Below, piece by piece: positions 3,178 through 47,091 of a stretch of 64,000 bases of DNA; the stretch's first letter is position 1, and every line of letters begins with the position of its first letter. The DNA comes from Candidatus Xenobia bacterium. GTDB lineage: Bacteria > Vulcanimicrobiota > Xenobia > Xenobiales > QWHO01. The stretch lies in NCBI GenBank assembly GCA_045863235.1, contig BTUM01000001.1:160001-224000 (forward strand), written 5' to 3'. Position numbers and translations under genes: made by a program. The notes under the pieces are model-generated. The model ran no database searches, was not told where the DNA came from, and saw nothing but the letters and a program-made list of their open reading frames with translations.

Positions 3178-3948
3178 TCAGGAGGAGGCCTTCCATTTCA
3201 CCACGGGCTTCATGTAGGCGATTCGCTCGGGCAGCTCAGCGTAGCCGGTGGTCTCGAACCAGAGCCCGATGGCCTCGTTCACGGCAAGATCCCCTCCGCC
3301 GGGAACGGTCAACGCCGTCGCCAGGCTGAAAGCCCCAGAGAACGTCACACCCGTTGGCGGGGTCAGCCTGTCGGTTGTGCCCAGATTGGAATCCACCGCC
3401 GGGTCGAGGCCGAGGCGGTGCTCAGAAGTCGCGCCAGTTTTGCCGATCGGGATGTAGCCGAGCTGGTCGCCCCGAATCAGTCGGATGTTCCGACTCGCGT
3501 TCTGCAACGCCGTCCCGGCCTCGTTGCAGCACTCCATCAGGACCGGCGATTCCTCGTCCATCTGATTCTCGCCAGACACGGCTGTCGTGCCGTTGCACTG
3601 CTTCAGCTCGGTCGTCCACTCACCGCCGAGCTTGTAGCTCACCCGCACCCAATCGGTGCAGGGCCCGTCCGCCTGGATCTGCCAGGTCCCCTGGGCGGCC
3701 GGCTTGTTGAGGCCGTTGGCGACCCAGAACCGAAGATTGCTCAGGGTGGCGTCCCCAGTGTTCACGGCACCCAGCTTGTAGTGCCAGGGCCCCAGGTCGG
3801 GGGGCTCGTCGGGGGTCGGGATGTCAGGGATGAATGCGCCCTCAGTGTCCTCGTCGAGCGGCGAGCCCAGGTCGGGGTCTCCACCTTGCGGGCTCACATC
3901 GTCGTCGGCCCAATCGTCTGTCAGATAGGGAGTAATCGTCCCGGCCAT
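3178..3948 (-). CDS. Minor tail/structural protein
   Basis: 256 aa, G/T/D-rich, coupled to neighbours in tail operon. Confidence 0.6.
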   Translation of the reverse strand: MAGTITPYLTDDWADDDVSPQGGDPDLGSPLDEDTEGAFIPDIPTPDEPPDLGPWHYKLGAVNTGDATLSNLRFWVANGLNKPAAQGTWQIQADGPCTDWVRVSYKLGGEWTTELKQCNGTTAVSGENQMDEESPVLMECCNEAGTALQNASRNIRLIRGDQLGYIPIGKTGATSEHRLGLDPAVDSNLGTTDRLTPPTGVTFSGAFSLATALTVPGGGDLAVNEAIGLWFETTGYAELPERIAYMKPVVKWKASS

Positions 3949-4379
3949 CAGCTTCCACTCCCTTCGATGCGGTCATGGACCTTGAGCCGGTTCACGACTG
4001 GCGAGAACCACCCGGACAAATAAGCCCCGGGCGTGCAGACCAGCGAGTCGCCCGGCAAGTAGCTCACCACCCAGGTGGTGCTGCCGTCATCAGGCGACCA
4101 GTGAAAAGGCTCGGCTTCGTCCCGCAGTGCCTTCAGAGCGTTGACCATGTCGAGCGAGGCCACCGGCAGCACCACGTCGACCCGCCCGTGACTGATACGC
4201 GTCCCGAAGGCAATCTCCACTTCCTCGCCCGGATAGTAGCGCGACCCGTCCCACACCGGTACCATCGGCTCTACCTGTGAGAGGAACGGCACCTGCACCT
4301 CGGGCTCGGGGAAGGGGGCGCTGACGCCCACCAGGTCGATTTGCCCGGACGCGTCCTGGCGGCGGAAGTAGTGGGCCAT
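3948..4379 (-). CDS. Putative distal tail protein; ends in GSGS
   Basis: 143 aa immediately downstream of tape measure (TGATG overlap). Confidence 0.6.
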   Translation of the reverse strand: MAHYFRRQDASGQIDLVGVSAPFPEPEVQVPFLSQVEPMVPVWDGSRYYPGEEVEIAFGTRISHGRVDVVLPVASLDMVNALKALRDEAEPFHWSPDDGSTTWVVSYLPGDSLVCTPGAYLSGWFSPVVNRLKVHDRIEGSGS

Positions 4380-7300
4380 CAGGCCAGTCCCGGTATCGCG
4401 GGCGCGTCGCCCATCAGTCGGGCCTGCATCCCGGTGGAGTCGAGAAATCCCTGGATGGTGGCCTTCTCCCCGTCGGGGCCCAGGAGCTCACCCTCCACGA
4501 CCACTCCACCCGACAGAACCACCTCGAGCTTCGGCTTGCCTGCCTGGGCGGCGGCCTCAGCGGCAGCGCGCTGGTTGATTGGGGAGAAACTGGCACCCTT
4601 CGCGGCTGCCCCGACAGCAGCATTGGCCGGGGCGCTGAGGTCGGGAACGGGCAGCTTCGGGGCGGTCAAGTTACCGGCTGAGGTCAGGGCCCCGTCCAGG
4701 GCGCCCGATACCTGGGCGTCGGTCAAATCGCCGGATTTCCCTGTTGCAGCCCTTTTGCTTGACGCGAACCCGGTGAAGGAGTCGGAGGGGGCCCCGAAGT
4801 TTGCAAAGGCCCCGGCCACGTCACCAGGGTCGTACACGCCCCCAGTGGTCTGCTCACGGCTTCCGAGCAACGAGCGCCTCGCCGCCTTCTCGGCGTCCAC
4901 GGTGCTCTGCACGTCGGCCTTTTCCTGGTCGAGCAGCTTCTTCTTTTCGGCCGCCACGAAGCGGGCGATGGTCTCCTCGTCCACGCCGGCCTCGCGGGCC
5001 TTCTGGACGGTCTCGAGGATGGCCCGGACTTTGATCTCTCGCTCCTTGCCCTCGGCTTGGAGGGTGGCGTCCTCGAGTTGCTTCGTCAGGTCCTTGCGCT
5101 TGTCGAGCAGCTCCTTGTTCGCTTCGTCCTCGAGCTTCTTGCGCTCGCCGTGATACCAGGCTTCCACCAGCGCCTTGTCCTGGGCCACCTTCAGATACTC
5201 CGCCTTCTGGCGGTCCAGCTCGGCGATCTTCGCGGCAGTCTCACCCTGAGTGAGTCGGACGACCTCGATGGCCAGGTCGGACTCGAGCTTCTTAGCGGCG
5301 TCAGCGGCCTTCTTGCGCTCGTCGGCCTGCTTCTTGCGCTCGCCCTCGGCCTCTTTGAGCAGCTGGCCCCTCAGCCGAGCGATGTCCAGCTCGAGCTTGC
5401 GCTCCTCGTCTTTCTCGAGCACCAGCTGGGTCTGGCCAAACTTGCGAGACTGGAGCACCTGCTCGAGCAACGCCAGCTCCTGCTGGGTGCTCAGTTCGTG
5501 CAGTGCCCTTTTGCGGGCGACAAAGAACTCGAGGTCCTTTAGCGCGTCCTGAGTGCGCTGCCGTTGCCGTGCGGCCAGGGCGTCGGAGTCGTCCGCTTGC
5601 GCAACCTTGCCCGGAGCCTGGAGCGGCGTTGCATCGCTCTTCGGGCCTGCAATTTCGGGCGTCGGGGTCTTGGCGTTCTCTGTCTTGACCAATGCGTCCA
5701 GGAAGGTGTTGCCGGTGACGAGCCGGCCAACCCCCTTCAGGCCCTCGAAGAATCGGTTCCCGCCCTGCTCACCTCGAGCCAGGTCCTGCTGATTTCCCTG
5801 GCGCAGCAACCCGGCCACCTTCTGAGTGTCCTGCTGCAGTGTCCCCAGCTGGTCCTTTACCAGGCCCGGAAGCTGGTCCATCGCCACAGCGAGAGAATCA
5901 AGCAGGTCGGCCAGGGCGCCCTTGATGACGGCTACCAGGCCCACGAACAGGTCCTGGACTCCGCCGAAGAGCTGCGTAAAGGTCCCTTCCAGCTCGGTGG
6001 CCATGTGGCCCAGCGCCTGGCCAATCTGCCCGATAGCGGTCAGAGCCTTGTCCACCAGGTCGAGCAACCAGGTGCTCAGCATGAGGAACCCCTGGCCCAT
6101 TCCAGCGATGCTCGGGTCGAAATGCTTGCGCTTTAGCAACTCCCAGCGCTCGCCGAACTGCTCATCCCACGCGGCCGCGGCCTGCTTAGTGGCCCCGGCG
6201 GAATCGCTGAAGGTGGCTAAGAGGCCCTCGAACTCCCCCTTGCCCTGCCGAATGCCGCGGACGAAGTCGTTGGCAACTTTCTTGCTAAGCAGGTCCATCG
6301 CCGCGTCCATCTGTGCGGCGGAGCCCTTGCCCTCCCCAAAGGTCCGGAATAGCGCCGCCAGCACGCTGCGGGCCCCATTGACCGGGCGCCCGAACTGGTC
6401 GAGCTCCACGCCTAGGCGCTTCAGCGCTGAGGCCTGCTTGTCGGTTGGTTCGCGCAGGGCACCCATCATATTGGTGAGGCCCTTCAGGGCGGCCTCGGAA
6501 TTGGATACGTCGAACTGGGTCAGCAGGGCCAGCGACTCGTCGAAAGACAGCCCTGCCGCAGCAAATACCCCCTGGCCGCGCTGCAGAGTGGTGCCGAGCT
6601 GATCCACGCTGGCACCACTGGCCCGAGCTGCCACGGTCAGGCGGTCCAGGATGGGTTGGACCTGCTCCGTGCTCAGGCCCCAGGCATCGAGCAGGTCACG
6701 GGTCGTGTTGATGTTCTCTCGGACGTCCGTCTGATGGACCTTGGCAAAGTCCAGGAAGGCCTGCGTGACCGGGACCAGGTCGTTACCGATGTCACGGAAC
6801 TCGCGTCGCATCGCCTGCAACGCGCCACCCAGGGCCTCGATGCTGTTGGTGTTATTTCGGTGCAGGGAGATGAGAGCGCCCTCGAACCGCTTTGCCTCGC
6901 CCGCGCTGGCTCCGGTCTGTGACCGGAATCGAGCCATCGCGTCGTGGAGCTGGGTCCCGAACACCACGGCATCCGCGCCCAACTTGATCAGAGCGGCGCT
7001 CAGCGCGCCCAGGACGGCTGGCCCGGCGAACCGCAGAGCCATCGCAGACACGCGCTCGAGCTGACCTCCAAAAGAGTTCATCTGGGATCGAGCGGCACCC
7101 AGCTGAGAGCTCAGCTGACCCGCGCGCGCCTGAGTATCCTCGAGCGACTTGCGCATCTTGTCGAGCTTGGCGGCGGCCTTCTCCGCGCCAGTACCACCGG
7201 CGGCCACGGCCTTCTCAAGCTTGGCAATCTGCGCCGCCTTTCGATCTGCAACCGCGCGCGTCTTCTCGAGCTGCTGCTCAAGGCGCTTGACCTTCGCGGC

Positions 7301-7393
7301 GGCGCTCTCGGTGGACTTCTCCATGTCTCGGAGTTGGCTGACCGCCTTGCCCGTGAGAACATCGAAGACGGCTTCAAGCCGGAATACTGCCAT
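4379..7393 (-). CDS. Tail tape measure protein
   Basis: 1004 aa, Ala/Gly/Leu-rich with coiled coils, follows tail chaperone genes. Confidence 0.92.
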   Translation of the reverse strand: MAVFRLEAVFDVLTGKAVSQLRDMEKSTESAAAKVKRLEQQLEKTRAVADRKAAQIAKLEKAVAAGGTGAEKAAAKLDKMRKSLEDTQARAGQLSSQLGAARSQMNSFGGQLERVSAMALRFAGPAVLGALSAALIKLGADAVVFGTQLHDAMARFRSQTGASAGEAKRFEGALISLHRNNTNSIEALGGALQAMRREFRDIGNDLVPVTQAFLDFAKVHQTDVRENINTTRDLLDAWGLSTEQVQPILDRLTVAARASGASVDQLGTTLQRGQGVFAAAGLSFDESLALLTQFDVSNSEAALKGLTNMMGALREPTDKQASALKRLGVELDQFGRPVNGARSVLAALFRTFGEGKGSAAQMDAAMDLLSKKVANDFVRGIRQGKGEFEGLLATFSDSAGATKQAAAAWDEQFGERWELLKRKHFDPSIAGMGQGFLMLSTWLLDLVDKALTAIGQIGQALGHMATELEGTFTQLFGGVQDLFVGLVAVIKGALADLLDSLAVAMDQLPGLVKDQLGTLQQDTQKVAGLLRQGNQQDLARGEQGGNRFFEGLKGVGRLVTGNTFLDALVKTENAKTPTPEIAGPKSDATPLQAPGKVAQADDSDALAARQRQRTQDALKDLEFFVARKRALHELSTQQELALLEQVLQSRKFGQTQLVLEKDEERKLELDIARLRGQLLKEAEGERKKQADERKKAADAAKKLESDLAIEVVRLTQGETAAKIAELDRQKAEYLKVAQDKALVEAWYHGERKKLEDEANKELLDKRKDLTKQLEDATLQAEGKEREIKVRAILETVQKAREAGVDEETIARFVAAEKKKLLDQEKADVQSTVDAEKAARRSLLGSREQTTGGVYDPGDVAGAFANFGAPSDSFTGFASSKRAATGKSGDLTDAQVSGALDGALTSAGNLTAPKLPVPDLSAPANAAVGAAAKGASFSPINQRAAAEAAAQAGKPKLEVVLSGGVVVEGELLGPDGEKATIQGFLDSTGMQARLMGDAPAIPGLA

Positions 7394-7783
7394 CGCCGTC
7401 TCCTTTCTCTCTCACGAACAGGCGCCGGTAGCTGGCCATAGCGGCGTGATACTCGGCATTGAGGTCGGCGTCGGGCTCGTCGAGCAAACCCCAGGTGCGC
7501 AGCCAATCACGCTCGCGCTGGATGGGCTTGCGCCAATGAGCGAAGTGTTCCATCCAGGCGCCGAACGCCAACAGACGCCTGGCCTGACGGGCCTCCACGA
7601 GCGCCTGCTGGCGTGCGACACGCAGGCGCTCAAGCAACTCGGCGTAGGGTGTCTCCCTCAGCCAGTCTTGTCGGGTGCCCCCGTAGCGAGACTGGAGAAG
7701 GTCGAGAGCCAGCCAGAGGCCATCTCGCCCAACCTCGCCAGGAGGCCCCGTCCGCTCGCCTCCCCCAGCAGGCCGAAAAAAAA
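7374..7783 (-). CDS. Tail assembly chaperone extension (gpT-like), probably made by -1 frameshift
   Basis: Open -1 frame downstream of T TTT TTC slippery site; lies between chaperone and tape measure. Confidence 0.75.
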
Positions 7784-8113
7784 GGCTTGCACATCCGGGT
7801 GCCTGGCCAGCGCACGCCCGCACTCCAACTGCACCGGAAGCGGGAAGAGCTCCGGGTCCTGGAACTCGGGGACGGGGACTTGAAGCACGTCAGCGAGCCA
7901 CTCCGCCAGTAGCTCACGGGTGGCAGGCAATCCCAGGAGGAGCGCGGCCGCGAAGGTCTCGACGGAAGAATCGACCCCCCGCAGCCGCGTGTTCAGCTCG
8001 CTCGAGCCCCGGCCGAGAGCCTCCTGGAGGATCTCAGCCAGGTCGTAGAGGTCGTCATAACCCAGGCGACGGAGCCGGTGGCTCCGCCCCTGGGCGTCAG
8101 TCACTGTCAGCAT
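7658..8113 (-). CDS. Tail assembly chaperone (gpG-like)
   Basis: 151 aa between major tail protein and tape measure; contains T8 run. Confidence 0.8.
   Translation of the reverse strand: MLTVTDAQGRSHRLRRLGYDDLYDLAEILQEALGRGSSELNTRLRGVDSSVETFAAALLLGLPATRELLAEWLADVLQVPVPEFQDPELFPLPVQLECGRALARHPDVQAFFFGLLGEASGRGLLARLGEMASGWLSTFSSLATGAPDKTG
7775..7783 (-). other. Programmed -1 frameshift slippery site
   Basis: Minus strand GCC TTT TTT TTC; downstream GGAGGC...GCCTCC stem. Confidence 0.75.
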
Positions 8114-8790
8114 CAGCTACCAGAGCCAGCGTTCTTGGGCAGGAAGAAGTGGATGGGCTGGTCGAGCGGAGCCGTCAGGGGCGAGCTACCTCGGAGCTCG
8201 AGCTGGAGCCCCACGGCGTTCCCGTCCTGCGTTTTGAACGAGGTCGAGTTGATGGCGATGGCGTTCTCGAGCACGACGATCACCGGCAGCACCACGTCGC
8301 CGTCATTGACCGAGGCGGCGATGGCGATGTTCGGGATGTAGTCGCCCTCTACCACGGCCAGGCGCGGGGTAATCTCGTCGTAGCTGCTCCACTCGTCCTT
8401 GTCGGACGAGCCCAATGCGATCTGGAGGGTATCGGGGTCGCGCACCTCGAGCACGGTCACCACGATGATCCCCTGAGCAGTGTCGCGCTTGTCGAGCCCC
8501 ATCACAGGGCCCCGCAAGCCGTCGATGGGCCCGATCTGACTGATGGGCGCCTCGAAGCGAGCCTCGGCTCCTTCTCTGGTCGCTCCAAACGCCCGCGGGG
8601 CCACCAGGTTGCCGGCGGCGCTGGTCCAGGTGTTGTCCGGATCGATGGCGTCGGCCCAGTCGTTGACGTCGAATCCGGCCAGGCTGCGCAGCTCGGCCAG
8701 GTTGATGTTGACGAACGCGGCGCCAGCGTGCAGCACCATGTTCTGAGGCGACACGGCCCGGAAGCCCGTGATGCCAGTGACGATACTCAT
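8113..8790 (-). CDS. Major tail (tube) protein; ends in GSGS
   Basis: 225 aa, GATREG motif, position between tail terminator and chaperones. Confidence 0.8.
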   Translation of the reverse strand: MSIVTGITGFRAVSPQNMVLHAGAAFVNINLAELRSLAGFDVNDWADAIDPDNTWTSAAGNLVAPRAFGATREGAEARFEAPISQIGPIDGLRGPVMGLDKRDTAQGIIVVTVLEVRDPDTLQIALGSSDKDEWSSYDEITPRLAVVEGDYIPNIAIAASVNDGDVVLPVIVVLENAIAINSTSFKTQDGNAVGLQLELRGSSPLTAPLDQPIHFFLPKNAGSGS

Positions 8791-8832
8791 TTCACTGATC
8801 TCCTCTCACTCCACTCCGGCCAGGCCGGTTTT

Positions 8833-9243
8833 CTATCGGTCCTGAACGGATTGCACCAGCGACCAGTCGTACGCCACGACCGAGAACTCCAGGGCAATCC
8901 GGTGAACATTTTGGGCGTCGGTGGCCACCTGGGCGGAGCGCGTGAACCAGTAGTTTGCAGGTGTCCCGGTGGCAAGCATCAGTCGCTGATAAGCCAGCAA
9001 TGCCTTCACACGCTCAGAAATCGCCTCGGCCCTGTCGGCGTTGGGCGAGTAATCCCAGATGTCCAGCTTATGAGAGCCTGAGAGCAACGGTGCTCCCCGC
9101 AATTCCAGCACATGGACGATGTAGGGCATCGGGGCGTTCCGTCGAGCCATCTTGCTGTACAGGTTGACCTGCTCCCCAAACAGCTCGATGAGTTGCTCGT
9201 CCTCTGTCAGCAGCGCATCGAAGGCATCGATGACGATCTTCAC
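8833..9243 (-). CDS. Tail terminator/completion protein
   Basis: 136 aa, PYIV...LDIW pattern and position. Confidence 0.7.
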   Translation of the reverse strand: MKIVIDAFDALLTEDEQLIELFGEQVNLYSKMARRNAPMPYIVHVLELRGAPLLSGSHKLDIWDYSPNADRAEAISERVKALLAYQRLMLATGTPANYWFTRSAQVATDAQNVHRIALEFSVVAYDWSLVQSVQDR

Positions 9244-9635
9244 CTGAGCCTGTCGACCTGACTCCAGGGGGCATGGAGAATCCCCTCCACCTGGGTCTCG
9301 ACTTCAGCTAGCGCCTGTTCGAGGAAGGGCCGCTCGTCAGACACGGCCAGAGCAGCCGGGTGGTCTGTGCCCACAGTAACCTCGCCTTGCCCCGCCTTCA
9401 CCCGGAAGCTTTCCTGCAGCTTACCGGTGCGCCGAGCTGGCCACTCACCGGGAGCTGAAGCGGTGTAGGTCTGGTCTGTCCCGGGGATCTTGTAGGTGTG
9501 CCCCGAGCGTGGACCATCCAGTCCCTCTTTGACCGTGGATAGGATAGCTGAGGCCACCTCAGCCTCTTTAGCCCTCGCGTCCGCCTCGAGCGCCTTCTCC
9601 AGAGCCAGGAAGTGGTTCGTGATTTTAACTGCCAC
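9240..9635 (-). CDS. HK97 gp10-like neck protein
   Basis: ASAPGEWPARRTGKLQES motif; GTG start at 9635 after GGAGG. Confidence 0.75.
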   Translation of the reverse strand: MAVKITNHFLALEKALEADARAKEAEVASAILSTVKEGLDGPRSGHTYKIPGTDQTYTASAPGEWPARRTGKLQESFRVKAGQGEVTVGTDHPAALAVSDERPFLEQALAEVETQVEGILHAPWSQVDRLR

Positions 9636-9999
9636 TGCCGCCTCCGAGTTCGGGAATTGGAATGCCGTCATCCGTGATGTCGCGAGTCTGGATGATTGTC
9701 CAAGCCGCACGGGCCCCCTTTGGGGAGTAGGTGGCGGTCGTGGGCCGCAGGATTCTCTCGCCCCAGGCGAACAGGGTGCGGTCGTATCTGAACTCTCGCC
9801 GGCCCCTGAAGCGCAGCGTGTGCGTAGGCTCGGCGTCCTGCTTACCATAGGCGGCACGAGCGCTCACGTCCACCTCCAGGACCGACGCCCACCAGGTGCC
9901 CACCAGGTCCCAGTGCTCCTCTTCCCCCGTTGCGACGCGCACGCTGGTGAGGGCATACTCAGATACCCGCTGGTCCAGGGCCGCACAGGAGACACTCAC
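9625..9999 (-). CDS. Head closure/head-tail adaptor; ends in GSGS
   Basis: GTG start at 9999 overlapping previous stop; WWASV...THTLRFR pattern. Confidence 0.7.
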   Translation of the reverse strand: MSVSCAALDQRVSEYALTSVRVATGEEEHWDLVGTWWASVLEVDVSARAAYGKQDAEPTHTLRFRGRREFRYDRTLFAWGERILRPTTATYSPKGARAAWTIIQTRDITDDGIPIPELGGGSGS

Positions 10000-10331
10000 A
10001 GTCGGGGCTTCCAGCCTCGAGTCAGACCTGAGTAATCGCGCTGGGACCAATTCACAAATCCGAGCTGGTTCACTTGCTCGATCTGGAGACCGTCCGGCCG
10101 GTGCTCGTAGTCTCTGGATACCTGTTGCAGTAGCCAACGCTCGACCCAATTGGGGATCGGAAGGTCTTCCCCGTCGGCGTTCTGGAACGCGTTGCCCATG
10201 TAGGCGTCGGCGTCTTCTTTCGCGGCGTCCAAGAGTAGCTGGAGGAGCGCGTCCTCGTCGCTGGATTCTACCTTTGCGTAGAGCTTGACCGTCTCGAGAG
10301 TTACCGTGCTCCGGTCTACAACGGCTCCCAT
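9996..10331 (-). CDS. Head-tail connector (HK97 gp6-like)
   Basis: VTLETVKLYAKVESSDEDALLQLLLDAA...YEHR pattern. Confidence 0.85.
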   Translation of the reverse strand: MGAVVDRSTVTLETVKLYAKVESSDEDALLQLLLDAAKEDADAYMGNAFQNADGEDLPIPNWVERWLLQQVSRDYEHRPDGLQIEQVNQLGFVNWSQRDYSGLTRGWKPRL

Positions 10332-11668
10332 CAGGCGCCACCGTGCATGCGAGTCAGATGCCCGCGCAGTGATGCGGCGCTCGGGAATTGCCTGTCACAC
10401 TGCCCACAGGAAAAGCCTTCCTTGACCTCGGCCGGAGCCACCACTTTCGCTTCGGTCGTTTCAAGAGGAGCGATCCTCGCCAGCCCGCGATTCTCAAACC
10501 ATCTCACGCGCTGAGGCAAGTCATAACCTGTGTAGATTCGTTTCCACCCACCGCGCGAGAGTACACAGTTTGGATAGAACTCGGCATTCTTTGGAATGCG
10601 ACCTTCCGGCGCAACAAACGTCTGGTTTGCGATCATTCGGACTGAGGCCGGATTCTGCGGTTTCTCGTGTTCAGGCACAGTCAAGACCTCCAGGATGGCG
10701 TTCACAGCCCGCACGGTAGCGTGTCTGTCGGTGTACTTGTAGACCCGGGCCACAGCCCGTTTCCTGGCTTCCTGCTGGGTTTCAAAGTCCTCGAGAGCCA
10801 GGGCGACTCCGTCTACCAAGTGGTCCGGGTTAGCAACCTGGACGCCCACCGTAGCGCATTCCCAGAAGCGCAAGCCGTGGTGAATGTTTCGTCGGTAGTG
10901 AGGGCTGTTCAGCACCACTACCGGTCTCCCGGCCGAGGCGAATTCGAACAATGTCGATGAATTGTCACAGATGTAGCAGTCGGCTCGTTCGAGCACCTCG
11001 TCAAAATCCGCCAGCACCTCGACTCCGGCGGCCTGATAATGCGGCCGCAACTGCTCAATGATTCGCGGGTGGCCATGGCCGATGAGTGTCCAACGGGGGT
11101 CTGTCGCCAGATCAGAGAGGGCGCCGCGAAAGTGCTCCCAGGCACTTCTGGTTTCCGGCACGATCCGGCAGTCCCAGTGAAAGGACATTGCAACCACGGG
11201 GCGCTGGGGGCGTTTCCAGGGAGGAGCCGGGTGCCAGCGGTCGAGCTTTGGGCAACCCACGACCGCCACCGGTATCCCCGGATGTGCCCGCCTGTTACGC
11301 TCGGCCGGGTGGTCCCCGGGCACGAGGAAGAGTCGGACCCCCAGACGCCCCTCGCCGCCGGCGTAGCTCGAGTGTGCACTCGAGTAGCTCTGGCCGGCAC
11401 CGTGCTCGGAGAAAATGGTTGGATGGTGGGCCTGCTGAGCCACCTTGAGGTCGCGAAAGCTGCTGACCAGGACTGAGCTTGCCGGCGTCAGCACTTTCCC
11501 GACGACGCTCGATCGCTCAAATGCTACGGACTCGATGCCCTTGCTTTTGGCGTACTCGACCAGGTGCCCTGGGACCAGGAAGACTCCCTTCCTTTCGACA
11601 GGGAAGGCATTCCAGATCGGCCTCAGGTGGTCAAGAAAATGCCGCTCGGAAGCCACGCAATCCAGCAT
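10331..11668 (-). CDS. GT-B fold transferase (CDP-glycerol glycerophosphotransferase-like) with C-terminal C2H2 zinc finger
   Basis: EHG, GCPKLD, HPR and DNSSTLFEFASAGRPVV motifs; terminal CGQC-x12-HLTRMH. Confidence 0.7.
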   Translation of the reverse strand: MLDCVASERHFLDHLRPIWNAFPVERKGVFLVPGHLVEYAKSKGIESVAFERSSVVGKVLTPASSVLVSSFRDLKVAQQAHHPTIFSEHGAGQSYSSAHSSYAGGEGRLGVRLFLVPGDHPAERNRRAHPGIPVAVVGCPKLDRWHPAPPWKRPQRPVVAMSFHWDCRIVPETRSAWEHFRGALSDLATDPRWTLIGHGHPRIIEQLRPHYQAAGVEVLADFDEVLERADCYICDNSSTLFEFASAGRPVVVLNSPHYRRNIHHGLRFWECATVGVQVANPDHLVDGVALALEDFETQQEARKRAVARVYKYTDRHATVRAVNAILEVLTVPEHEKPQNPASVRMIANQTFVAPEGRIPKNAEFYPNCVLSRGGWKRIYTGYDLPQRVRWFENRGLARIAPLETTEAKVVAPAEVKEGFSCGQCDRQFPSAASLRGHLTRMHGGA

Positions 11669-13194
11669 CAGTAGTTGTTTCCGGCTCGCTCCGCCCCGAT
11701 ATGAGTGACCAGTTCCTCGCCGTGCCCCCAGTAGGCCATCCGATTGGCTGGGTCGCGGTTCAGCACGTCGGTGTAGCCTCGCTCGCTGGATTTCACATCA
11801 GGCCAGGGCGTCTCACAAAGGGAGCGCCTGAAGAGACTCGGGTTGCACGTCCAGTAGAGACGATGTTCCAGCCAGCGCGCACCGTCCACCTCGCACTTGG
11901 TGTAGGCCTCAGGATGCTCGGCGATAATGCTGCCGGCAGCCAGCTCGCGAGGATAGTAGGGGTGTCGCAGGAGCGCGAGCTGGCTCAGATGTGGCTGGTC
12001 CTGCAGAATGTCGATCATCCGGTCGAGATCGATGGGCACGTCAAACGTGAAGTCGTCCTCGGTCTGGAACACGTAACCCGAATTGCAGCGCCGTCGCAGG
12101 TAGCTCCACATCGCTCGCATCGAACCCGTGTAGCCGAGCCGCTCGGCCGGGCCGACCACGTAGAACCCGAATCTCCCGAATTGCTCCATGAGCCACTGCT
12201 TGTAGGCTGCGTCTCCCGAATCGTCGTAGAACACGCGGCGCACGATGGGGCCCCGCACTTGCTCGACCAGGCTGGGGACGGCCCGTGCGATGTATTCGCG
12301 TCGCCTATCCGTGTGCACCACTACTGTCACGCCACGGTTGACTGCCTTCCAATCGTCGACCAGTTCCCGCAGGGTGGGCCACTTGCCCGTCCACTCGGAG
12401 CCGCCGAGCTGGGCTTCGGCAGCTGTGCTCTCGCGCTCGAGGTTGGCGATGTCTCTGGCCAGGTCTTCCTTGGGCGGCCAGGTGTCCTCGCGCTCCGTCT
12501 GACCCATGTCCCGGCGCAGGGCCACCATGTAGCGCCGGCCCAAGATCGAGTTGCGGAGGAAATCGACCTGGTAGCGCCCGTTCCGCTTTCCGCGCTCCGG
12601 TGTCAGCGGGTGCCACAGGTGGAAGACATCGCCATCGATCCGCTCGTGTCCGTGTAGGCCGCAGACCGCAGACTGGAACGCCATGTCCTCCCAGCCCCAT
12701 CCACGAAAACGCTCGTCGAAGCCGCCCAAGTCATCCCAGACCGGCCGCGGCACGACGAAGCAGCAGCTCCAACTGAGCGGGTTCGTTTTCTCCACCAGAT
12801 GGTCAAGGTCAGCGCCGTCCAGGCCCTGGGCGAGCAAGCCGGCCTGGTCGCGCACCAGGCGATCGGTCGAGGCTCGGTCCAACCCCCGCCAGCGTCGGAA
12901 GGCCCAGGTGACCCGCCCGGTCGTCCGAGCCCGCTTGAGCGCTGCCTCCAGCTGACCGACCGGAATGAAGATGTCGCTGTCGATGATGACTGCGAAGTGC
13001 CAGCGCCCGTCCCTGTCCGCCGCCCGAGCCGCCCGATTGATCGCAGCTGAGCGGTTGAAGGGCCCGCGGTCATGGTGTCCCTCGTAGACCCTGAGCTTCG
13101 GGTGAAGGAGCGCCCAGCGCTTCTTGAGGCGTTCCCAAATCAAGTCGCGCTCAGGGATGCCCGCGCGCCGCGGGCAGAGGATAACAATCCGCAT
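11668..13194 (-). CDS. Two-domain GT-A glycosyltransferase (GT2/GT7-like)
   Basis: ATG at 13194 (TAATG overlap); FNRSAAIN, DSD, GGFDERFRGWGWED; second domain YDDSGD, QTEDDF. Confidence 0.88.
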   Translation of the reverse strand: MRIVILCPRRAGIPERDLIWERLKKRWALLHPKLRVYEGHHDRGPFNRSAAINRAARAADRDGRWHFAVIIDSDIFIPVGQLEAALKRARTTGRVTWAFRRWRGLDRASTDRLVRDQAGLLAQGLDGADLDHLVEKTNPLSWSCCFVVPRPVWDDLGGFDERFRGWGWEDMAFQSAVCGLHGHERIDGDVFHLWHPLTPERGKRNGRYQVDFLRNSILGRRYMVALRRDMGQTEREDTWPPKEDLARDIANLERESTAAEAQLGGSEWTGKWPTLRELVDDWKAVNRGVTVVVHTDRRREYIARAVPSLVEQVRGPIVRRVFYDDSGDAAYKQWLMEQFGRFGFYVVGPAERLGYTGSMRAMWSYLRRRCNSGYVFQTEDDFTFDVPIDLDRMIDILQDQPHLSQLALLRHPYYPRELAAGSIIAEHPEAYTKCEVDGARWLEHRLYWTCNPSLFRRSLCETPWPDVKSSERGYTDVLNRDPANRMAYWGHGEELVTHIGAERAGNNY

Positions 13195-13940
13195 TAGACC
13201 TCCCGGAAGGCTCGCAGGATCTCGAGCAGGGCCTCCTGCTTGGCCCGCACTTGGGCCTGGTCGGCCAAGCGCCAGCCCGGACGGATAGTCTCCCCGAACG
13301 AACTGGCGTAGTCTCGAAACTTGAACCCGTCTCCGAGCACGCCGGGGTGAGGGTCCCACCAGTTCTCGATTCCCAGTGAATCTGCCAGGATGATCCCGTG
13401 CAGACTCGAGGACACGATTCGCCGACAGCGGGCCGCGGCGGTCACCACCTGGTCGACGCCAGCGAGGACGTCGATCTCAAGCACGGTCTCGCGTCGGCCG
13501 GGGTCGACCTCGATCGAGCGCACTTTGTAGTCCCCAGGGTTTCCGCGATGGTCGACGTAGTGACGGATGAATCCGACGTCGACATCCGGCCTGGGCCGCT
13601 CGTGGAGCAACAGGCCGGCCAGGAGCCCAGGGTCGGCCAGCACAGGTGGAGGATTCTCCGGGCTCAGGCGCACCCGCTCGAGCGTAAGCCTCCCACGCAG
13701 GGCGAGCACACGGGAGCAGGTCAGGTCCCGGCGGGATTCATCGAACATCAGCCCGCTGCCCAGCACGGTGCCGGCCCACCCGTCAGGGACCGCCTCCAGC
13801 ACCGACCCCACAGCCACCAGGTGCGCGTCTGGCACCTCGGCCCATTCTGGCTCGATCCCCGCAATGCGAGAAAGGAGCACCCTGGTAAGGGCGTCGCCAA
13901 AGTTGGCTCCTCCAGCGTACTGGTCCCAGAAAGCTCTCAT
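13194..13940 (-). CDS. Polysaccharide pyruvyltransferase (ExoV-like)
   Basis: NFGDAL, GSVL, ALRGRLT, LADPGLL, SSSLHGIILADSLGI, FKFRDY motifs. Confidence 0.88.
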   Translation of the reverse strand: MRAFWDQYAGGANFGDALTRVLLSRIAGIEPEWAEVPDAHLVAVGSVLEAVPDGWAGTVLGSGLMFDESRRDLTCSRVLALRGRLTLERVRLSPENPPPVLADPGLLAGLLLHERPRPDVDVGFIRHYVDHRGNPGDYKVRSIEVDPGRRETVLEIDVLAGVDQVVTAAARCRRIVSSSLHGIILADSLGIENWWDPHPGVLGDGFKFRDYASSFGETIRPGWRLADQAQVRAKQEALLEILRAFREV

Positions 13941-13960
13941 GGTCTCAACATTCCCATCTC

Positions 13961-13988
13961 AAAATGGGGCCCCCGGTTGGAGGCCCCA
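13961..13988 (-). terminator. Intrinsic terminator after capsid gene
   Basis: TGGGGCCTCC-AACC-GGGGGCCCCA followed by TTTT on minus strand. Confidence 0.65.
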
Positions 13989-14005
13989 CGTTCAAAGGGG
14001 ACCGA

Positions 14006-15256
14006 TTATGAGCCGGAGCCCGTGTAGCTGCCGGTGATGATGAGTTCGGGAATCTGGTGGGCGATGTATACCCCCTCGTCACCGAACAACAGCAACTTGC
14101 CAGACAGCGCAAAATCGCTGTGCTGGTTGAAGATCTGCACGCTCACCTCTTCCAGGTCATAGAAGGTTGAGGACTGGTAGAGGTCGCCAGTCACGAACTG
14201 GCCCTGGTCGATTGCGCTGGTGGGAAACACAGGAACTTGCCACATGACCTTCTGGCCATTGACCTGGACCTGAGCCCAGATGTAGCGATCCTGGCTGTCC
14301 TTCTGGAGCTCCATCTCCTCCCAGTCCTCGTGATTCACGATGTAGACGGTGGGGAGGGTGGGCAGTTCCACCAGATGAAGCATCGTCTGGGCGCGGCGCA
14401 GCGCGTCGATCTTGGTGTCGCCAGCCTGGTGGCGGTTGTAGGTCTGTCGCCCGCTGACCTGGGTGAAACCCTTCAGGCTCGCAGAAGACCCGGCGATCAG
14501 GAGCGTGTCCTCCTTGTGGTAGATGCCGTTGACCATGCGGTTCTCGGTGAAGTTCTCCACGGTGGGCATGTCGCGGGCCTGCTCCTTGGTGAGGACCAGG
14601 CCGTGGCTGACCTGAGTCGAGGCCACCGAAGACTTGTCGAAGCTGATCTCGGAGAGTGCGGCCTCGGCTCCCTCAGCACGCTCGGCTGCCGCGTTGGTGT
14701 AGCCCGTCTCTACCACGAACTCAAGCTGAGCTTTCGTCGTCCGCACGACATTCAGGACGTCGCGCAAGTGCATTTGCCGCAAACGAGGGGGGGCGTAGAT
14801 GCGCTGGTCGAGCATGGTCGAAAGGACGTCGCGGGCGTCGCCTGGGTCGAGCGCCTTCTTTTCGGGCCAGATCCGGCCAAGCTTGACCGGCTCCATCGAA
14901 ACAGCTGACTTGTTCTCCAGGAACTTGCGGTACGTCTCCGACTCGGTGAGTCGCTTTCCGATTGACTTCGTCTGGCCGTCTCCGTGGACCACGGTGCGGT
15001 TGAGCTTGGCCTCGATGTCATCCAGGCGGCTCTTCTGCTCGACAGCAGTTTCATGGGCCCTTTTGATCTCGCTCTGGATATCCTCGGCGGTCTTGTTGTA
15101 GCGTTCCTCGAGCGCGGCGATCGACTTGCTGGTCGAGCTGGTCGTGCCCCCCAGCTTCTTGATCTCCTCGTTCTGCTTTTTCAGCTCCTCCTTGAGGGCT
15201 GTCTGCACGGACTTGAACTCGCTGCCCAGCTGGGCCAGTGCGTCGTTCGTCTTCAC
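14006..15256 (-). CDS. Major capsid protein, HK97 fold; ends in GSGS
   Basis: 416 aa, N-terminal coiled-coil delta domain, AEG and KDSQDRYIW motifs. Confidence 0.93.
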   Translation of the reverse strand: MKTNDALAQLGSEFKSVQTALKEELKKQNEEIKKLGGTTSSTSKSIAALEERYNKTAEDIQSEIKRAHETAVEQKSRLDDIEAKLNRTVVHGDGQTKSIGKRLTESETYRKFLENKSAVSMEPVKLGRIWPEKKALDPGDARDVLSTMLDQRIYAPPRLRQMHLRDVLNVVRTTKAQLEFVVETGYTNAAAERAEGAEAALSEISFDKSSVASTQVSHGLVLTKEQARDMPTVENFTENRMVNGIYHKEDTLLIAGSSASLKGFTQVSGRQTYNRHQAGDTKIDALRRAQTMLHLVELPTLPTVYIVNHEDWEEMELQKDSQDRYIWAQVQVNGQKVMWQVPVFPTSAIDQGQFVTGDLYQSSTFYDLEEVSVQIFNQHSDFALSGKLLLFGDEGVYIAHQIPELIITGSYTGSGS

Positions 15257-15289
15257 TGCTGTTCTCCTTTCTTACCCAGCCCGGGCATC

Positions 15290-15319
15290 AAAAAGACCAC
15301 CGGTTTCCGGTGGTCAAAA
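15290..15319 (-). terminator. Terminator-like hairpin between protease and capsid genes
   Basis: GACCACCGG-AAA-CCGGTGGTC followed by TTTTT on minus strand. Confidence 0.6.
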
Positions 15320-15348
15320 CTCTTGCTTGTGGACTTTTCGTGGGATGC

Positions 15349-16320
15349 CTACTCGGCGTCGGACTCGCTGGCCATGTTGCGGATCTGCACGACACACTCC
15401 TCGAGAATCACGGCAACCTCTTCGAGGTCCTTCCGCTTCTCGTCGGCGTCGGAGGACCAGCGAGCCTGCCAGATGGCGTCGGATGCGCCGCGCAGTCGCG
15501 CAGAGATGTCCATCGCGCGGGGACTTCCCTTCCTTTCCCGGCCTCGAGCACCGCTCTTTTCGCCGTCCACTTCCTCGTCGTCGGACGACGAATCGCTCCC
15601 CTCATCCGCCTCGTCGACATCCTCATCGGTGTCAATCGGGCTCTCGTCGTCTTTGGAGGAGAGCGACTTGCGAAAGCTTTTCATATCGCGCAGCAAGTTC
15701 GTCAGCCCCTTCTCGTCATCGAGGTCCACGTCTTCATCCTCCTCTTCATCGTCCGAGCAGGCTACGGAGCGCAGCTCGGTGAGGGCCCCGATGGCCCGGT
15801 CAAGTTTGGTGATACTCGCGGCCGACAGCACGCGCCCCGCTTTTACGCCGGTTATGGCCGCCAGTTCGTTGGCTGGGAAGTCCACCGGGCCGAATTCGTA
15901 GACCTTAAGCTTGATGAGCTCGCGCCGGCCCGTGTCGGGGCTCCTCTGGCTCTCTTCCACGTCGTAAGAGAAGCTCATGGCGTCCAGTGTCCCCGAAGAG
16001 CACATCGCCAGGACGTCATTCCCCAGCGAAGTCTCGTCGATTCGAGCCTCGATATACAGCCCACGCTCGTCCTCGCGCATGACCGTGGGAATGCCGATGA
16101 TGAACGTGTGGTTGTAGAAGAGCTTAATCTTGCTTCGAAGCTGTCCATCTACCTGGTTGGGGCCTCGCTGAGCAATGGTCTCAGCGAAGGCACCTTTACG
16201 GATGGTGTCTCCCACCTGGTCGGGGTCCCAGGTCGCAGCGTAGCCGGTGATGGTGCGCTGTGCTACGTCTGCCTTCACGCCGACAAAGGGAAAGGATTTC
16301 CGTGTGGTCTGCAACTTCAC
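15349..16320 (-). CDS. HK97-family prohead protease with acidic C-terminal extension
   Basis: GYAATW, KGAF, LFYNH, EDERGLY, MSFSY, VDFPAN motifs. Confidence 0.93.
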   Translation of the reverse strand: MKLQTTRKSFPFVGVKADVAQRTITGYAATWDPDQVGDTIRKGAFAETIAQRGPNQVDGQLRSKIKLFYNHTFIIGIPTVMREDERGLYIEARIDETSLGNDVLAMCSSGTLDAMSFSYDVEESQRSPDTGRRELIKLKVYEFGPVDFPANELAAITGVKAGRVLSAASITKLDRAIGALTELRSVACSDDEEEDEDVDLDDEKGLTNLLRDMKSFRKSLSSKDDESPIDTDEDVDEADEGSDSSSDDEEVDGEKSGARGRERKGSPRAMDISARLRGASDAIWQARWSSDADEKRKDLEEVAVILEECVVQIRNMASESDAE

Positions 16321-17747
16321 TGGGTTCTCCTTTCCAGGCGCCCCAGGCGCTTTTCGAGTTGCTGGATCAGGATCATCAGGCGCTTGCTCCCATCCTGGAG
16401 ACTCGGGTCCACCAGAGCCGCGCCCTCATTGGCCAGCGGGATCATGTTGCTCGGGGCCCAGCTGACATCACCGCCCTCGATGGCCGGCAGACCTAGACCC
16501 AGGTAGCGATTCACGACGTTGATTGGATAGCCCATCATGTGCAGCTTGTAGCCAGCATCGATCTTGGAAATAAGCTGGGGTAGGAGGGCCGGAACGTTCG
16601 CGAAGTCAAAGCTCAACCGGTAATTCTCGCCCCAGCGGGGCCAGATCCAGGCTCGGTTGTAAGCATCAGACAGAATACCTGCCAGCGGGATGACCGAGTC
16701 TTCATAAAAGCTCTTATGATACTCGGCCAGGTTGGCGAGGGTGGCATTCTCGCTGATGCCTACGATCGGGGGCGGGACTCGGAAGACCGCGCAGATTTCC
16801 TCGCGGGTCAGTTTGCGACCCTCGACGTAGTCCATCTCCACCGGGGATCGGCTGGTCTCCGTCCAAGTGGTCCCTGAGCTCAGCAGTAACAGATTGTAGG
16901 CTGATTCCGGCCCGTGAATCTCGCTGGCCAGGAGTTCCTTCAGTTCAGCGTGTTGCTCTGGCTCGAGCGTCTGAGGAGTAGTAAGCACACCGCCAGCGAT
17001 GCCTCGGTTCTCGAGCATCGAGAAATTCCACTGAATGGCAGCCACGTCCGTATCAACGACAAGTGACGCAGCTCGCAACGGACTGAACCCCCAGTAAGGG
17101 TTCCCCGGGTCGTGGAACTGACAGTGGACCAGGTCTCGCGGCCGCACGAGGAAAGTGTTCCGGTCATTCGTGGCAGCGTATCCGGGGAAGACAGACATTC
17201 CCGTCCCCCACCGAGTGACCTTGTACAGGTCAATCAAGTCCAGGGTGCCCGGCACAGGGTAGCACTTGTCAGGCGTTATTGGCCAGAGCTCGAGAGTGTT
17301 GGCCCTCCCTGAATTCGTCGAATCAATGATGGTCGTCAGGAAGTTGCCCGTCAGGAACAAGTCCTGCAGGTTGCGTTGCACCAGGTCTGACCGGGAGAAG
17401 AACTTGTTGGGGCGCGAGAACCGACCTTCCGCCGGGTGGTCGGCCATGTCTTCCCACTGCTGGCCGTTCCATTGCTGGACTTTGTGCGGTACCACTCCGA
17501 GGGCCCAAACATAGGCCTGGATACAAGCGTAAACCCACGGATTGCTTTTTAGGCCCTCTGCTATAGCCTTCTCTGCGGTCCAATCGGTCTGGCCGCGATA
17601 GGGTCGCCCGTAAACGTAGATCGGCTGGACCTGGGCGAGACGGACAGACTTCTTATCGGCGGCCGAGACGACCGAGGCCGCGCCCTCGGAGGTGAGGGTT
17701 GAGCCCGCGATCCAGGCGCCCACGCGTTGGCGGAATCGGTTTAGCAA
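16317..17747 (-). CDS. Portal protein, HK97 family
   Basis: WVYACI, YWGFSPL, EICAVFRVPPPIVG motifs. Confidence 0.93.
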   Translation of the reverse strand: MLNRFRQRVGAWIAGSTLTSEGAASVVSAADKKSVRLAQVQPIYVYGRPYRGQTDWTAEKAIAEGLKSNPWVYACIQAYVWALGVVPHKVQQWNGQQWEDMADHPAEGRFSRPNKFFSRSDLVQRNLQDLFLTGNFLTTIIDSTNSGRANTLELWPITPDKCYPVPGTLDLIDLYKVTRWGTGMSVFPGYAATNDRNTFLVRPRDLVHCQFHDPGNPYWGFSPLRAASLVVDTDVAAIQWNFSMLENRGIAGGVLTTPQTLEPEQHAELKELLASEIHGPESAYNLLLLSSGTTWTETSRSPVEMDYVEGRKLTREEICAVFRVPPPIVGISENATLANLAEYHKSFYEDSVIPLAGILSDAYNRAWIWPRWGENYRLSFDFANVPALLPQLISKIDAGYKLHMMGYPINVVNRYLGLGLPAIEGGDVSWAPSNMIPLANEGAALVDPSLQDGSKRLMILIQQLEKRLGRLERRTQ

Positions 17748-19320
17748 CGGGCTGGTCCTCCTTGAGCGCGTTGGGCTCGGTGTCCGCCGGGGACGGTGGC
17801 TTGATGGTGGTCACGAGGAGAGACACGTCCACCTGCTCACGCTCCTCAAAGTAAGCCTGGGCCTGACTCGAGGCGTCCACCTGGTCATCAGCCGCTCCCT
17901 TCGGGAAACTCGAATGCTCCGAGATCCACTCACGCACCCAGGGGTAACCATCGGAAGAGGGCAAGAAGATGTTGCCAGCTCGGGCTCGAGGCGTCCAGGC
18001 GTAAGCCCGCAAAACCTTGGAGCTGCCTTGCGGGTTGATCGGAGTTAACCCGGACAGCTCTGACTTCAGAACTCGTAAGACCTCTGGGCCATTGGCTTTC
18101 TGTTCCACCAATATCGGCCGGGCTTTGGGCCAGCGTTTAGATAGCAGCCTCACGGCCTCGATAGTACCAGTGAGGTCGAGCCGCTCTCGAATCTGATCGA
18201 GTAGGAATCGCCTGGGTCCAAGCCGGCCCCAGACCTGTCCGACTACCCAGGACGTTCCCTTCTTTAGACCTCCGCCCGAGCAGTCCCACGATTGAATCAG
18301 GTCGTTGAACCTGACCTCGCCGCTGTAAACCCAGCCCTCAGCCTCCTGGTCATAAGCGACGGGAAGGTCAGATAGGGCCCAGCGGCTCCACCAGGCAGGG
18401 TCGAACATGCCGCCCTTTCCTGCAACTGGCCATCCTTGCAGCAGCGCCCAAAAGAACTGCTCTCCCTGCTCGACCCGGACCTCGCTCAGGATGTCTGCGG
18501 GATGGAGTTCCGGACAAAGCGCCTCGCCTGGCTGACGTCCGATTGGGTCCGGAAATACCTCCTCGTAGCCGTCTGGAACCTCGTCCTCCGCGAGCGCAAT
18601 GGCCGGTAGGGAGACTTTCTCCCAGATCGCCCCGCCCTGTCTCTCGAGCGCACGCAGGTGGCCCGCCAGATCGTCAAGATGCCAGCGAGTCATGATCAGG
18701 ATGATTGCGCCGTTCTTCTGGACTCGCGTCCGAAGCGTCGTGCCGTAGAAGTCTTTCTGCTTTTCCCGGACCGTCTCTGAGAGGGCCTCTTCCTGGTTCT
18801 TTACCGGGTCGTCGATAACCAGCAAGTCAGCCGACTTACCGGTAATTGACCCACCCATCCCGGCAGTCCGCATACCGCCACGGTGGCCCTCAATTGACCA
18901 GTCATGTGCCGCCCGGTTCCGTCGGCTCACTCGAATCCCGAAAAGCCAGCCCCACTCCTCGAGGATGTCACGGACCTTCCGCCCGTAGCTGGCCGCGTAT
19001 TCAGCCTCGTAGCTGACCAGGATGATTCGGGTGTCGGGAAACATTCCCAACACCCAGGCCAGAAAGTAGACGCTGGCAAAGACGCTCTTACCATGCTGGG
19101 GGGGCATCGTGATCATCAGTCGCCTGATAATCCACCCCGCGGCCACGCGCTGGCCAGCCGCAACTAGGCGTTTCTTCGCTCCGGGCATCCCAGCTGCAAC
19201 CCGCATCAGAAATGTCAGCAGGTGGAGAAGATGCCGATATGGCCTCCACTCGCCCCGGCTCACATGCCAGGCAAAGTGCGCCGGCGAAATGCGAGCCCAC
19301 TCGTTGGCTGGAAATCTCAC
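17653..19320 (-). CDS. terL: Terminase large subunit
   Basis: Walker A PPQHGKS, LVIDDP, IMTRWH, nuclease SWD and DDQVDA. Confidence 0.95.
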   Translation of the reverse strand: MRFPANEWARISPAHFAWHVSRGEWRPYRHLLHLLTFLMRVAAGMPGAKKRLVAAGQRVAAGWIIRRLMITMPPQHGKSVFASVYFLAWVLGMFPDTRIILVSYEAEYAASYGRKVRDILEEWGWLFGIRVSRRNRAAHDWSIEGHRGGMRTAGMGGSITGKSADLLVIDDPVKNQEEALSETVREKQKDFYGTTLRTRVQKNGAIILIMTRWHLDDLAGHLRALERQGGAIWEKVSLPAIALAEDEVPDGYEEVFPDPIGRQPGEALCPELHPADILSEVRVEQGEQFFWALLQGWPVAGKGGMFDPAWWSRWALSDLPVAYDQEAEGWVYSGEVRFNDLIQSWDCSGGGLKKGTSWVVGQVWGRLGPRRFLLDQIRERLDLTGTIEAVRLLSKRWPKARPILVEQKANGPEVLRVLKSELSGLTPINPQGSSKVLRAYAWTPRARAGNIFLPSSDGYPWVREWISEHSSFPKGAADDQVDASSQAQAYFEEREQVDVSLLVTTIKPPSPADTEPNALKEDQPVAKPIPPTRGRLDRGLNPHLRGRGLGRLGRR

Positions 19321-26232: not shown

Positions 26233-26620
26233 GGTCTTGGTCCTCCTCCAGGTTGAACTCAGGAAAGGTGGGGGTCATGGCGAGTTCGTTGGCGTAGCGC
26301 TCGGCCGCCTCGCGACGCTCGCGGTAAATGCCCTCGTCGGAGCGGAACTCGCGGACGTCCGCGTCGTAGTCCTCGAGCACGCCCCAGGTATCTTCCTCCC
26401 CCAGAATGCCCATGGCGTCGTGATAGACATAGCCACGCTGCTCCAGCGAGCGCAGGGCCGCGCGCTCGTCGGGCTTGAGGTCTTCGACCGTGTTGCAGGC
26501 GCAGTTCTCACAGTGCGGCTTGCCGAGGAGGCCGTCGTCGCCACGGTCGTGCAAGTCGAAGAGCACCCGCTTCTCGGTGCCTGAGAGGGCATCCCAGTCG
26601 ATGCGGGCGATCTCATGCAT
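26222..26620 (-). CDS. Hypothetical protein
   Basis: 132 aa, coupled in operon. Confidence 0.6.
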   Translation of the reverse strand: MHEIARIDWDALSGTEKRVLFDLHDRGDDGLLGKPHCENCACNTVEDLKPDERAALRSLEQRGYVYHDAMGILGEEDTWGVLEDYDADVREFRSDEGIYRERREAAERYANELAMTPTFPEFNLEEDQDHAR

Positions 26621-27695: not shown

Positions 27696-27721
27696 GGCAG
27701 GGGTTCCTTTCTTGGGGTTGC

Positions 27722-45112: not shown

Positions 45113-45113
45113 T

Positions 45114-46980: not shown

Positions 46981-47014
46981 ATCCTGAGCCATTCTGTCGG
47001 GCTGTGACCATCCC

Positions 47015-47091
47015 ACTGAAAATCGCAGTGTCGCCAGTTCAATTCTGGCCCTCGGCACCAACGATAAGCCCGCTCCAGAGCGGGCTTTCGT
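47015..47091 (+). repeat. att core copy 1: 3' half of tRNA-Phe(GAA) plus terminator
   Basis: ACTGAAAATCGCAG...GTTCAATTC...GGCACCA then hairpin; identical to 55228-55304; 5' tRNA half absent. Confidence 0.93.

Follow-up and report, generated by a model that had tools for sequence, protein, structure and literature searches.

C-terminal serine tags and a late-operon enzyme cassette suggest virion glycosylation by a prophage of an Eremiobacterota/Vulcanimicrobiota bacterium

The window analyzed here, 64,000 nt of contig BTUM01000001.1 from Candidatus Xenobia bacterium (positions 160,001 to 224,000), carries the minus-strand late operon of a ~54-kb temperate, siphovirus-like prophage. In this operon, four structural proteins share the C-terminal tag GSGS, and three putative glycan enzymes are encoded between the major capsid and head-tail adaptor genes. 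We consider it very probable that the prophage O-glycosylates its own virion, in the way of mycobacteriophages Che8, Corndog, and Myrna; virion glycosylation, proposed as the likely function by a first-pass annotation of this DNA, is supported by enzyme homology, by the tags, and by the co-occurrence of both in other phage loci. The O-glycosylation of mycobacteriophage virions was reportedly described by Freeman et al. in 2023 for Che8 gp108-110, Corndog gp35-38, and Myrna gp238, with the glycan said to sit on the C-terminal Ser itself. This work is cited in PMC11256854, PMC12363180, PMC13445384, PMC13313380, and PMC12582341, and PMC12363180 describes Che8 gp110 and Corndog gp38 as essential for capsid glycosylation.

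The four tagged C-termini are as the first-pass annotation had described them. They belong to the HK97-type major capsid protein (416 aa; 14006..15256, minus strand, as all late genes below; PF05065, phrog_10; ending YTGSGS), the head closure protein (124 aa; 9625..9999; structure match to PF05521, TM 0.76; LGGGSGS), the major tail (tube) protein (225 aa; 8113..8790; phrog_885, E 1e-23; NAGSGS), and a distal-tail (Dit)-like protein (143 aa; 3948..4379; IEGSGS), capsid and tube being the putative acceptors. The Dit-like label rests on the position of the gene directly behind that of the tape measure protein, its tube- and Dit-fold look-alikes all falling under the bar for family naming. The start of the closure gene was placed at a GTGA overlap, and the sequence coding for its tail runs into the start region of the gene that follows. 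Tag codons differ in each case: GGC TCC GGC TCA TAA (capsid), GGC AGT GGC AGT TAA (closure), GGC TCT GGT AGC TGA (tube), and GGG AGT GGA AGC TGA (Dit-like). Since the Ser codons are of both the TCN and the AGY type, a DNA repeat as source of the tags is excluded, which supports the proposed selection at the peptide level.

In the output of a rough gene caller of our own, GSGS closes four of the 57 prophage genes and none of the 6,675 host genes (binomial p about 2e-10, assuming a rate of 1/6,675). Among 25,280 six-frame open reading frames of at least 100 aa in the genome, nine end in this way, four of them being the prophage four. Within the late operon, the tag is missing from the prohead protease, portal, and large terminase (TerL; 15349..19320; PF04586, PF04860, and PF03237, respectively), the tape measure protein (TMP; 4379..7393; PF10145 and several TMP PHROGs), the chaperone, the head-tail adaptor (9996..10331; PF05135, phrog_40; ending KPRL), the neck, and the tail completion/terminator protein (8833..9243; PF11367), in agreement with what had been noted for portal, protease, tape measure, and chaperone. 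The 256-aa tail-tip protein (3178..3948), devoid of Pfam or PHROG family matches, ends KASS, also as noted, and is a possible fifth acceptor candidate under a wider terminal-Ser rule.

The enzyme cassette starts with a polysaccharide pyruvyltransferase-like protein (248 aa; 13194..13940; PF04230, E 2e-6, above the cut-off) that has no sequence match in the PDB and whose homologues are rare, occurring in 4/69 capsid-bearing glycosyltransferase (GT) loci. It is followed by a two-domain GT-A enzyme (508 aa; 11668..13194; phrog_1721 and phrog_3047) and a GT-B-fold protein (445 aa; 10331..11668; PF04464; catalytic core ~1-330), all three frames being open and full length. The translational coupling claimed for the cassette holds for the enzymes with each other and with the adaptor gene, as evidenced by TAATG, TGATG, and TGATG overlaps, but not for the capsid gene, from which the cassette is separated by 65 nt. 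This gap contains a GC-rich hairpin followed by four U (13964..13989, minus strand; fold z -3.6), a possible attenuator candidate that was not listed by the terminator scan.

The N domain of the GT-A protein, with the motif GGFDERFxGWGxED, resembles Che8 gp109 (hidden Markov model E 5e-18, hhalign 97%), Corndog gp37 (E 4e-18 to 5e-17 for the gp109/gp37 range), and gp229 of ET08 (E 7e-25), whereas the C domain, with an EDD motif, matches ET08 gp228 (phrog_3047; E 2e-28). No protein of the cassette matched Che8 gp108. At least 440 homologues of the double GT-A were found among 8,000 candidates scored; tblastn hits fell in 222 phage records, of which 203 carry a Mycobacterium phage name, and in no record was 80% of the protein covered in one place. 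The GGFD..GWG.ED signature is also shared with GT7-like enzymes such as beta-1,4-galactosyltransferase and chondroitin synthase (PF02709 below cut-off; PDB E 0.01).

As to the third protein, the GT-B fold assigned by the first-pass annotation stood, and its matches point to more than one candidate activity: the CDP-glycerol glycerophosphotransferase family PF04464 (Pfam E 9e-9, residues 191-326 only) and, by structure, 2-epimerases. A model built from a 47-row alignment (pLDDT 80.8, low at 342-417) retrieved by Foldseek, as best matches, UDP-GlcNAc 2-epimerases, MurG, SdgB, and the GT-B superfamily at 13-18% identity; profile search returned no PDB match. Both these and the GT7-like similarities are motif- or fold-level matches, from which donor and linkage are not assignable. 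Residues ~331-445 (~115 aa; window 10334-10678, minus strand) form a fused piece with a C2H2-like finger, its zinc-finger matches being below cut-off. In related phages, the capsid gene is followed by a small gene that this piece resembles, with a score above those of 1,000 shuffled versions; in locus L246, a gene of this layout stands free and includes a C2H2 finger. The cassette seems to have been inserted before the small post-capsid gene and then fused to it.

These features both link the prophage to the known systems and set it apart from them. Like Che8, Corndog, and Myrna, it encodes a GT-A enzyme, with an N domain homologous to gp109/gp37, and its capsid and tube end in a small residue followed by Ser, the mycobacteriophage virion ends being TGS and DGS in Che8, VGS and GDS in Corndog, and GGS in Myrna gp98. 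Unlike them, its cassette fuses two GT-A domains, adds the GT-B-fold protein and the pyruvyltransferase, and lies between capsid and adaptor, and its tags extend to four proteins including closure and the Dit-like protein. ET08, a Cluster C1 mycobacteriophage (gp227-gp231), has counterparts of both the N (gp229) and C (gp228) domains and a GGS end on gp87, in the same place as Myrna gp98, but as separate genes far from the capsid gene, adjoining gp231 of the gp110 family, and with an untagged major capsid. The enzyme set, with a GT-B-fold protein and a rare pyruvyltransferase, differs from that of the mycobacteriophages, for which the mechanism itself is already published. Neither a portable C-terminal tag nor a pyruvylated virion was found described in the limited library consulted, and the accessible portions of PMC13252515, PMC12908700, PMC13419713, and 10.64898/2026.07.24.740622 hold nothing on virion glycans.

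The host also differs. Its genome (8.36 Mb, 65.8% GC, 97.6% complete) encodes LpxC, and the nearest named relatives of its RecA (87% and about 80% identical) are labeled as Candidatus Eremiobacterota or Vulcanimicrobiota; a 16S gene was not found in it. The host is therefore a Gram-negative, lipopolysaccharide-bearing member of the Eremiobacterota/Vulcanimicrobiota and not an actinomycete, which bears out the earlier impression of a non-mycobacterial host.

To relate tags and enzymes beyond this prophage, 236 loci were fetched with the enzyme alignment, of which the first 166 were kept and, after removal of 29 duplicates, 137 analyzed; of the 76 loci on genome contigs, 70 (L171-L240), for the most part weak matches on chromosomes, stand outside all counts. 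Protein clusters were labeled through PHROG matches of 46 representatives, and only closed genes were counted. Ser ended 64/68 capsids (45 GS, 10 AS, 1 GSGS) and 51/54 tube proteins (29 GS, 15 AS, 3 GSGS); several capsid clusters and six tube clusters contributed to these ends. GS ends were absent from TerL (0/52), protease (0/36), scaffold (0/35), tape measure (0/31), and the enzymes themselves (0/259), and occurred in portal (3/63), chaperone (1/24), adaptor (4/48), terminator (8/30), Dit-like (6/16), and closure-sized proteins (22/36, a label drawn from size and position, a few rows being enzyme fragments). From this distribution we infer that the tag marks proteins exposed on the virion, with folds unrelated to one another. 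Some of these loci are in Solirubrobacterales, Acidimicrobiales, and Dehalococcoidia assemblies by record title, the binning being unchecked.

The notion of GSGS as a portable acceptor was therefore half right: the tag is portable across unrelated virion proteins, but GSGS is not a general sequon, ending just 1/68 capsids and 3/54 tubes as opposed to the 64 and 51 that end in Ser. Read from these C-termini, GSGS is the form of this lineage, and the portable signal is terminal [G/A]S. In a ranking of 151 capsid homologues, 17 GS and 10 GSGS ends fell within the top 30, a set that includes the query, and 9 and 1, respectively, within the other 121; the ten homologues closest to the query all end in GS. 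A single-sequence capsid search of viral contigs revealed no relative. Variants of the tag were also observed. L151 and L161 are related and carry two gp109-like genes; Tyr-Ser closes both their capsid and their tube (YTYS, GYS). In L035, L037, L042, and L048, the phrog_777 major head protein has no GS, and GGS closes the product of the following 260-aa gene (phrog_779) in 4/4 cases, a pattern that parallels Myrna gp98 and ET08 gp87 beside untagged major capsids.

We compared these figures with those of loci lacking the enzymes. A first control comprised 80 viral loci with 25-32% identical capsids, collected regardless of enzymes; none of the 80 was matched by four enzyme profiles, and none of 50 whole records, 15 of them at least 90% complete, by A1 or phrog_854. 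In this redundant set (52 distinct tails), 2/79 capsids ended in GS and 5/79 in Ser. A test set beforehand by the first-pass annotation, that the tail be less common in relatives without the enzymes, was thus largely passed (5/79 vs 64/68 Ser-ended capsids). Over all genes, GS ends amounted to 12/1,266 in control and 123/1,119 in enzyme loci. One of the two GS controls, L246 (capsid ending DSGS), has an adaptor matching that of the window and, directly behind the capsid, a truncated GT4 N-terminal domain (L246:5091-5459), which may be an enzyme of another family occupying this position or what is left of a cassette in decay. A second control covered 50 of 155 records, picked by record size, from two capsid families: Ser ended the capsids of 13/14 enzyme-positive vs 3/36 negative records and, among those at least 90% complete, of 10/10 vs 2/28. 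In the capsid trees, an enzyme-negative clade nested among positives had variable ends in 11/13 rows. Collectively, these data argue for a link between tag and enzymes that is specific to these enzyme families and appears strong but imperfect.

Several results weigh against the glycosylation reading or narrow it. Eight of the ten complete positives are near-identical phages, and kin are not independent; capsid trees computed with the tail excluded yielded 2 + 1 independent contrasts, none discordant, which is not significant. In a third capsid family, of which no record is complete, 11/12 positives but also 6/12 negatives ended in Ser. L339 and L342, both at least 95% complete, have GS ends and no enzyme by five queries, L253 (60% complete) has a GS tail without a detected enzyme, and the enzyme-positive L399 (a weak match) and L491 have no Ser end. 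Other cassettes accompany capsids ending in Asn, Thr, Ala, Val, or Asp, all in head-tail modules and encoding a glycosyltransferase, epimerase, or methyltransferase: glycosyltransferase cassettes in L407, L420, L452 (L452:13827-15580), L456, L288 (L288:12263-15006), and L301 (L301:5835-6863, a methyltransferase-GT2 behind a Thr-ended capsid), and methyltransferase cassettes in L254 and L411. Because non-Ser loci carry such cassettes, "negative" here means negative for the enzyme families searched; the cassettes are possibly separate virion-modification systems with other acceptors. On the same side stand the absence of the gp110/gp38/gp238 family from the window genome, the similarity of the C domain to gp110 around one motif only (hhalign <1%), and the closure and Dit-like tails doubling as ribosome-binding-like sequence for the next gene, which are taken up in turn below. 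As a separate observation, capsid and tube of L326 end in runs of at least six Ser, with no enzyme in its 10-kb contig.

Che8 gp110, Corndog gp38, Myrna gp238, and ET08 gp231 belong to a single family (phrog_854), whose profile does find known positives and returned no member in the 97.6% complete host genome. Since the host is, in addition, not actinobacterial, the prophage is not a plain member of the Che8-type system. The missing gene could also mean that the system is vestigial, its priming enzyme lost and tags and remaining genes persisting without a product. Tags can indeed outlast enzymes, as in L339 and L342, enzymes can decay, as the GT4 fragment of L246 illustrates, and the GT-B protein is fused to a neighboring gene. 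However, all three enzyme frames are open and full length, the four tags are kept, and gp110 is generally missing in this branch: the family occurs in 3/34 enzyme-bearing records, and 7/8 of those at least 90% complete do without it, all seven keeping Ser on both capsid and tube. We therefore regard a vestigial system as very improbable, and the seven near-complete records rather point to a gp110-independent branch of virion glycosylation.

Such a branch would need another priming enzyme. In 42 loci of at least 14 kb, all of whose capsids end in Ser, 15 had no GT-B and 13 no C domain; the N domain occurs in every one of them, as the design of the search ensures, and other second domains, e.g., PF04488, occur in the same set. 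GT-B as general priming enzyme was rejected on this count. With the gp110 family absent and GT-B missing from many tagged phages, the ET08 gp228-like C domain, whose EDD motif is also that of gp110, is by a modest margin of belief our best priming candidate, a step weakened by ET08 having both gp228-like and gp110-family genes.

A different target of the cassette would be the host envelope, in superinfection exclusion, or phage DNA, the tails then being, e.g., flexible ends. The usual substrates of pyruvyltransferases and PF04464 proteins are polymers of the cell surface, and the prophage has a C5 cytosine methylase, which would suit DNA modification; phage glycosyltransferases can hypermodify DNA downstream of a methylase and a dioxygenase, according to the portion available of 10.1101/2023.12.21.572611. 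Against this, the cassette is part of the late operon and shares translational coupling with the adaptor gene, it is homologous to virion-glycosylation enzymes, and a search for Tet/JBP (PF12851), run without a working positive control, gave no match. GtrABC serotype-conversion cassettes consist of membrane enzymes and a flippase, lie by the att site, and are expressed in lysogeny. The window enzymes, in contrast, have no strongly hydrophobic segment (maximum Kyte-Doolittle 19-mer 1.15-1.34), and no flippase or GtrAB-type gene was present among the prophage genes scanned. Modification of envelope or DNA would also leave the tagging of only outer virion proteins unexplained, and we judge it improbable.

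A narrower, non-exclusive form of the glycosylation reading confines the glycan to capsid and tube, the closure and Dit-like tails being by-products of translational coupling or buried. GGAG/GGAGG codes for Gly-Ser/Gly-Gly; the closure tail (GGA GGC GGC AGT G) places GGAGG 5 nt before the GTG in the frame of the next gene, the Dit-like tail has GGGAG shortly upstream of TGATG, and the stopper and first minor tail proteins of Che8 and Corndog are untagged. Yet a ribosome-binding site accounts for two residues and not for an identical four, GS ends mark 22/36 closure-sized and 6/16 Dit-like proteins in enzyme loci, and their overall frequency there is that of 123/1,119 genes vs 12/1,266 in controls. 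Ribosome-binding overlap may thus contribute to the closure and Dit-like tails, but not to those of capsid and tube, and restriction of the glycan to the latter two seems to us rather unlikely. Under the broader glycosylation reading, we hold with considerable confidence that capsid and tube would be the main carriers, and lean slightly toward closure and Dit-like proteins being modified too.

Under the glycosylation reading, lytic growth would yield the three soluble enzymes together with the neck and tail genes, their output probably staying below the capsid level because of the hairpin. One GT-A domain would read a flexible C-terminus ending in small-residue-Ser-COOH and place the first sugar onto the terminal Ser, and the gp109-like N domain would extend the chain. 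The GT-B protein would add or supply a further unit, acting as transferase, polyol-phosphate transferase, or UDP-GlcNAc 2-epimerase, and the pyruvyltransferase would cap the sugar with pyruvate, resulting in an anionic coat. Tentatively, and with odds we place below even, these phages may represent a widespread gp110-independent branch in which the fused double GT-A reads [G/A]S-COOH on any protein; in this Gram-negative host, a pyruvylated glycan would then decorate head, neck, tube, and tip, and the fused, capsid-associated piece would recruit the GT-B protein to the head during assembly. For this host, shielding, whether from environmental degradation or adsorption or from host surface or defence factors, is a more plausible role than antibody evasion.

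The prophage is integrated at tRNA-Phe (contig coordinates C1:153090-153165), which puts one end ~6.9 kb beyond the left border of the window; the other is closed by an integrase and att copy (45838..47075, plus strand; PF00589), the copy, corresponding to the 3' part of tRNA-Phe, mapping at window 47006-47075 (C1:207006-207075) beside the integrase gene. A search of 400 other genomes of the phylum at E 1e-15 recovered neither the enzyme nor the capsid. From four DNA runs, contigs covered 29-30 of the 30 bins of window 3500-16500 in short pieces, many below 95% identity; the tag codons are not among their listed differences, which is uninformative for the tags. At the left end of the prophage, left of the window, a HicA/HicB-like pair (C1:153389-154202) is followed by lysis-like and long tail genes without GS ends, all labeled by appearance. 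The N-terminus of a 548-aa tail protein bears about five tandem GEFGFRVGY-like repeats (window 2997-3176, minus strand). Other prophage genes encode a DNA polymerase III beta clamp, an N6/N4 methylase, and the C5 cytosine methylase (within window 26616-31294, minus strand). Just upstream of the integrase, two unassigned genes (window 44114-45743, plus strand), the second with hydrophobic stretches and a weak PF00335 match below cut-off, are possible defence or exclusion cargo. A second element of ~8.2 kb (window 47076-55288) sits in tandem at the same tRNA-Phe site, with a perfect 64-bp att copy at 55225-55288. It encodes an integrase (54026-55099), a DnaB-like helicase (51108-52787), and a replication protein O-like product (50422-51111), all on the minus strand, as well as two low-GC genes without assignment (48529-49622), and looks like a phage satellite.

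As far as the available parts of PMC11256854, PMC12363180, PMC13445384, PMC13313380, and PMC12582341 tell, tailed-phage virion glycosylation has been described for a few mycobacteriophages only. Our analysis suggests that its acceptor signal can be read from sequence, recurring on unrelated capsid, tube, closure, and Dit families where the enzymes occur and being absent from internal and assembly proteins, so that a terminal tag may serve as a simple predictor of glycosylated virions in metagenomes and, possibly, as a two-residue tag for glyco-engineering. It further points to a priming enzyme other than gp110 and extends the trait to a Gram-negative phylum without an animal host in view, for which reason antibody evasion cannot be its general purpose. 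If the proposed [G/A]S-COOH branch is real, it would provide a minimal, cytoplasmic, and portable glycosylation tag, and sugar-coated virions would be common among environmental phages of several phyla.

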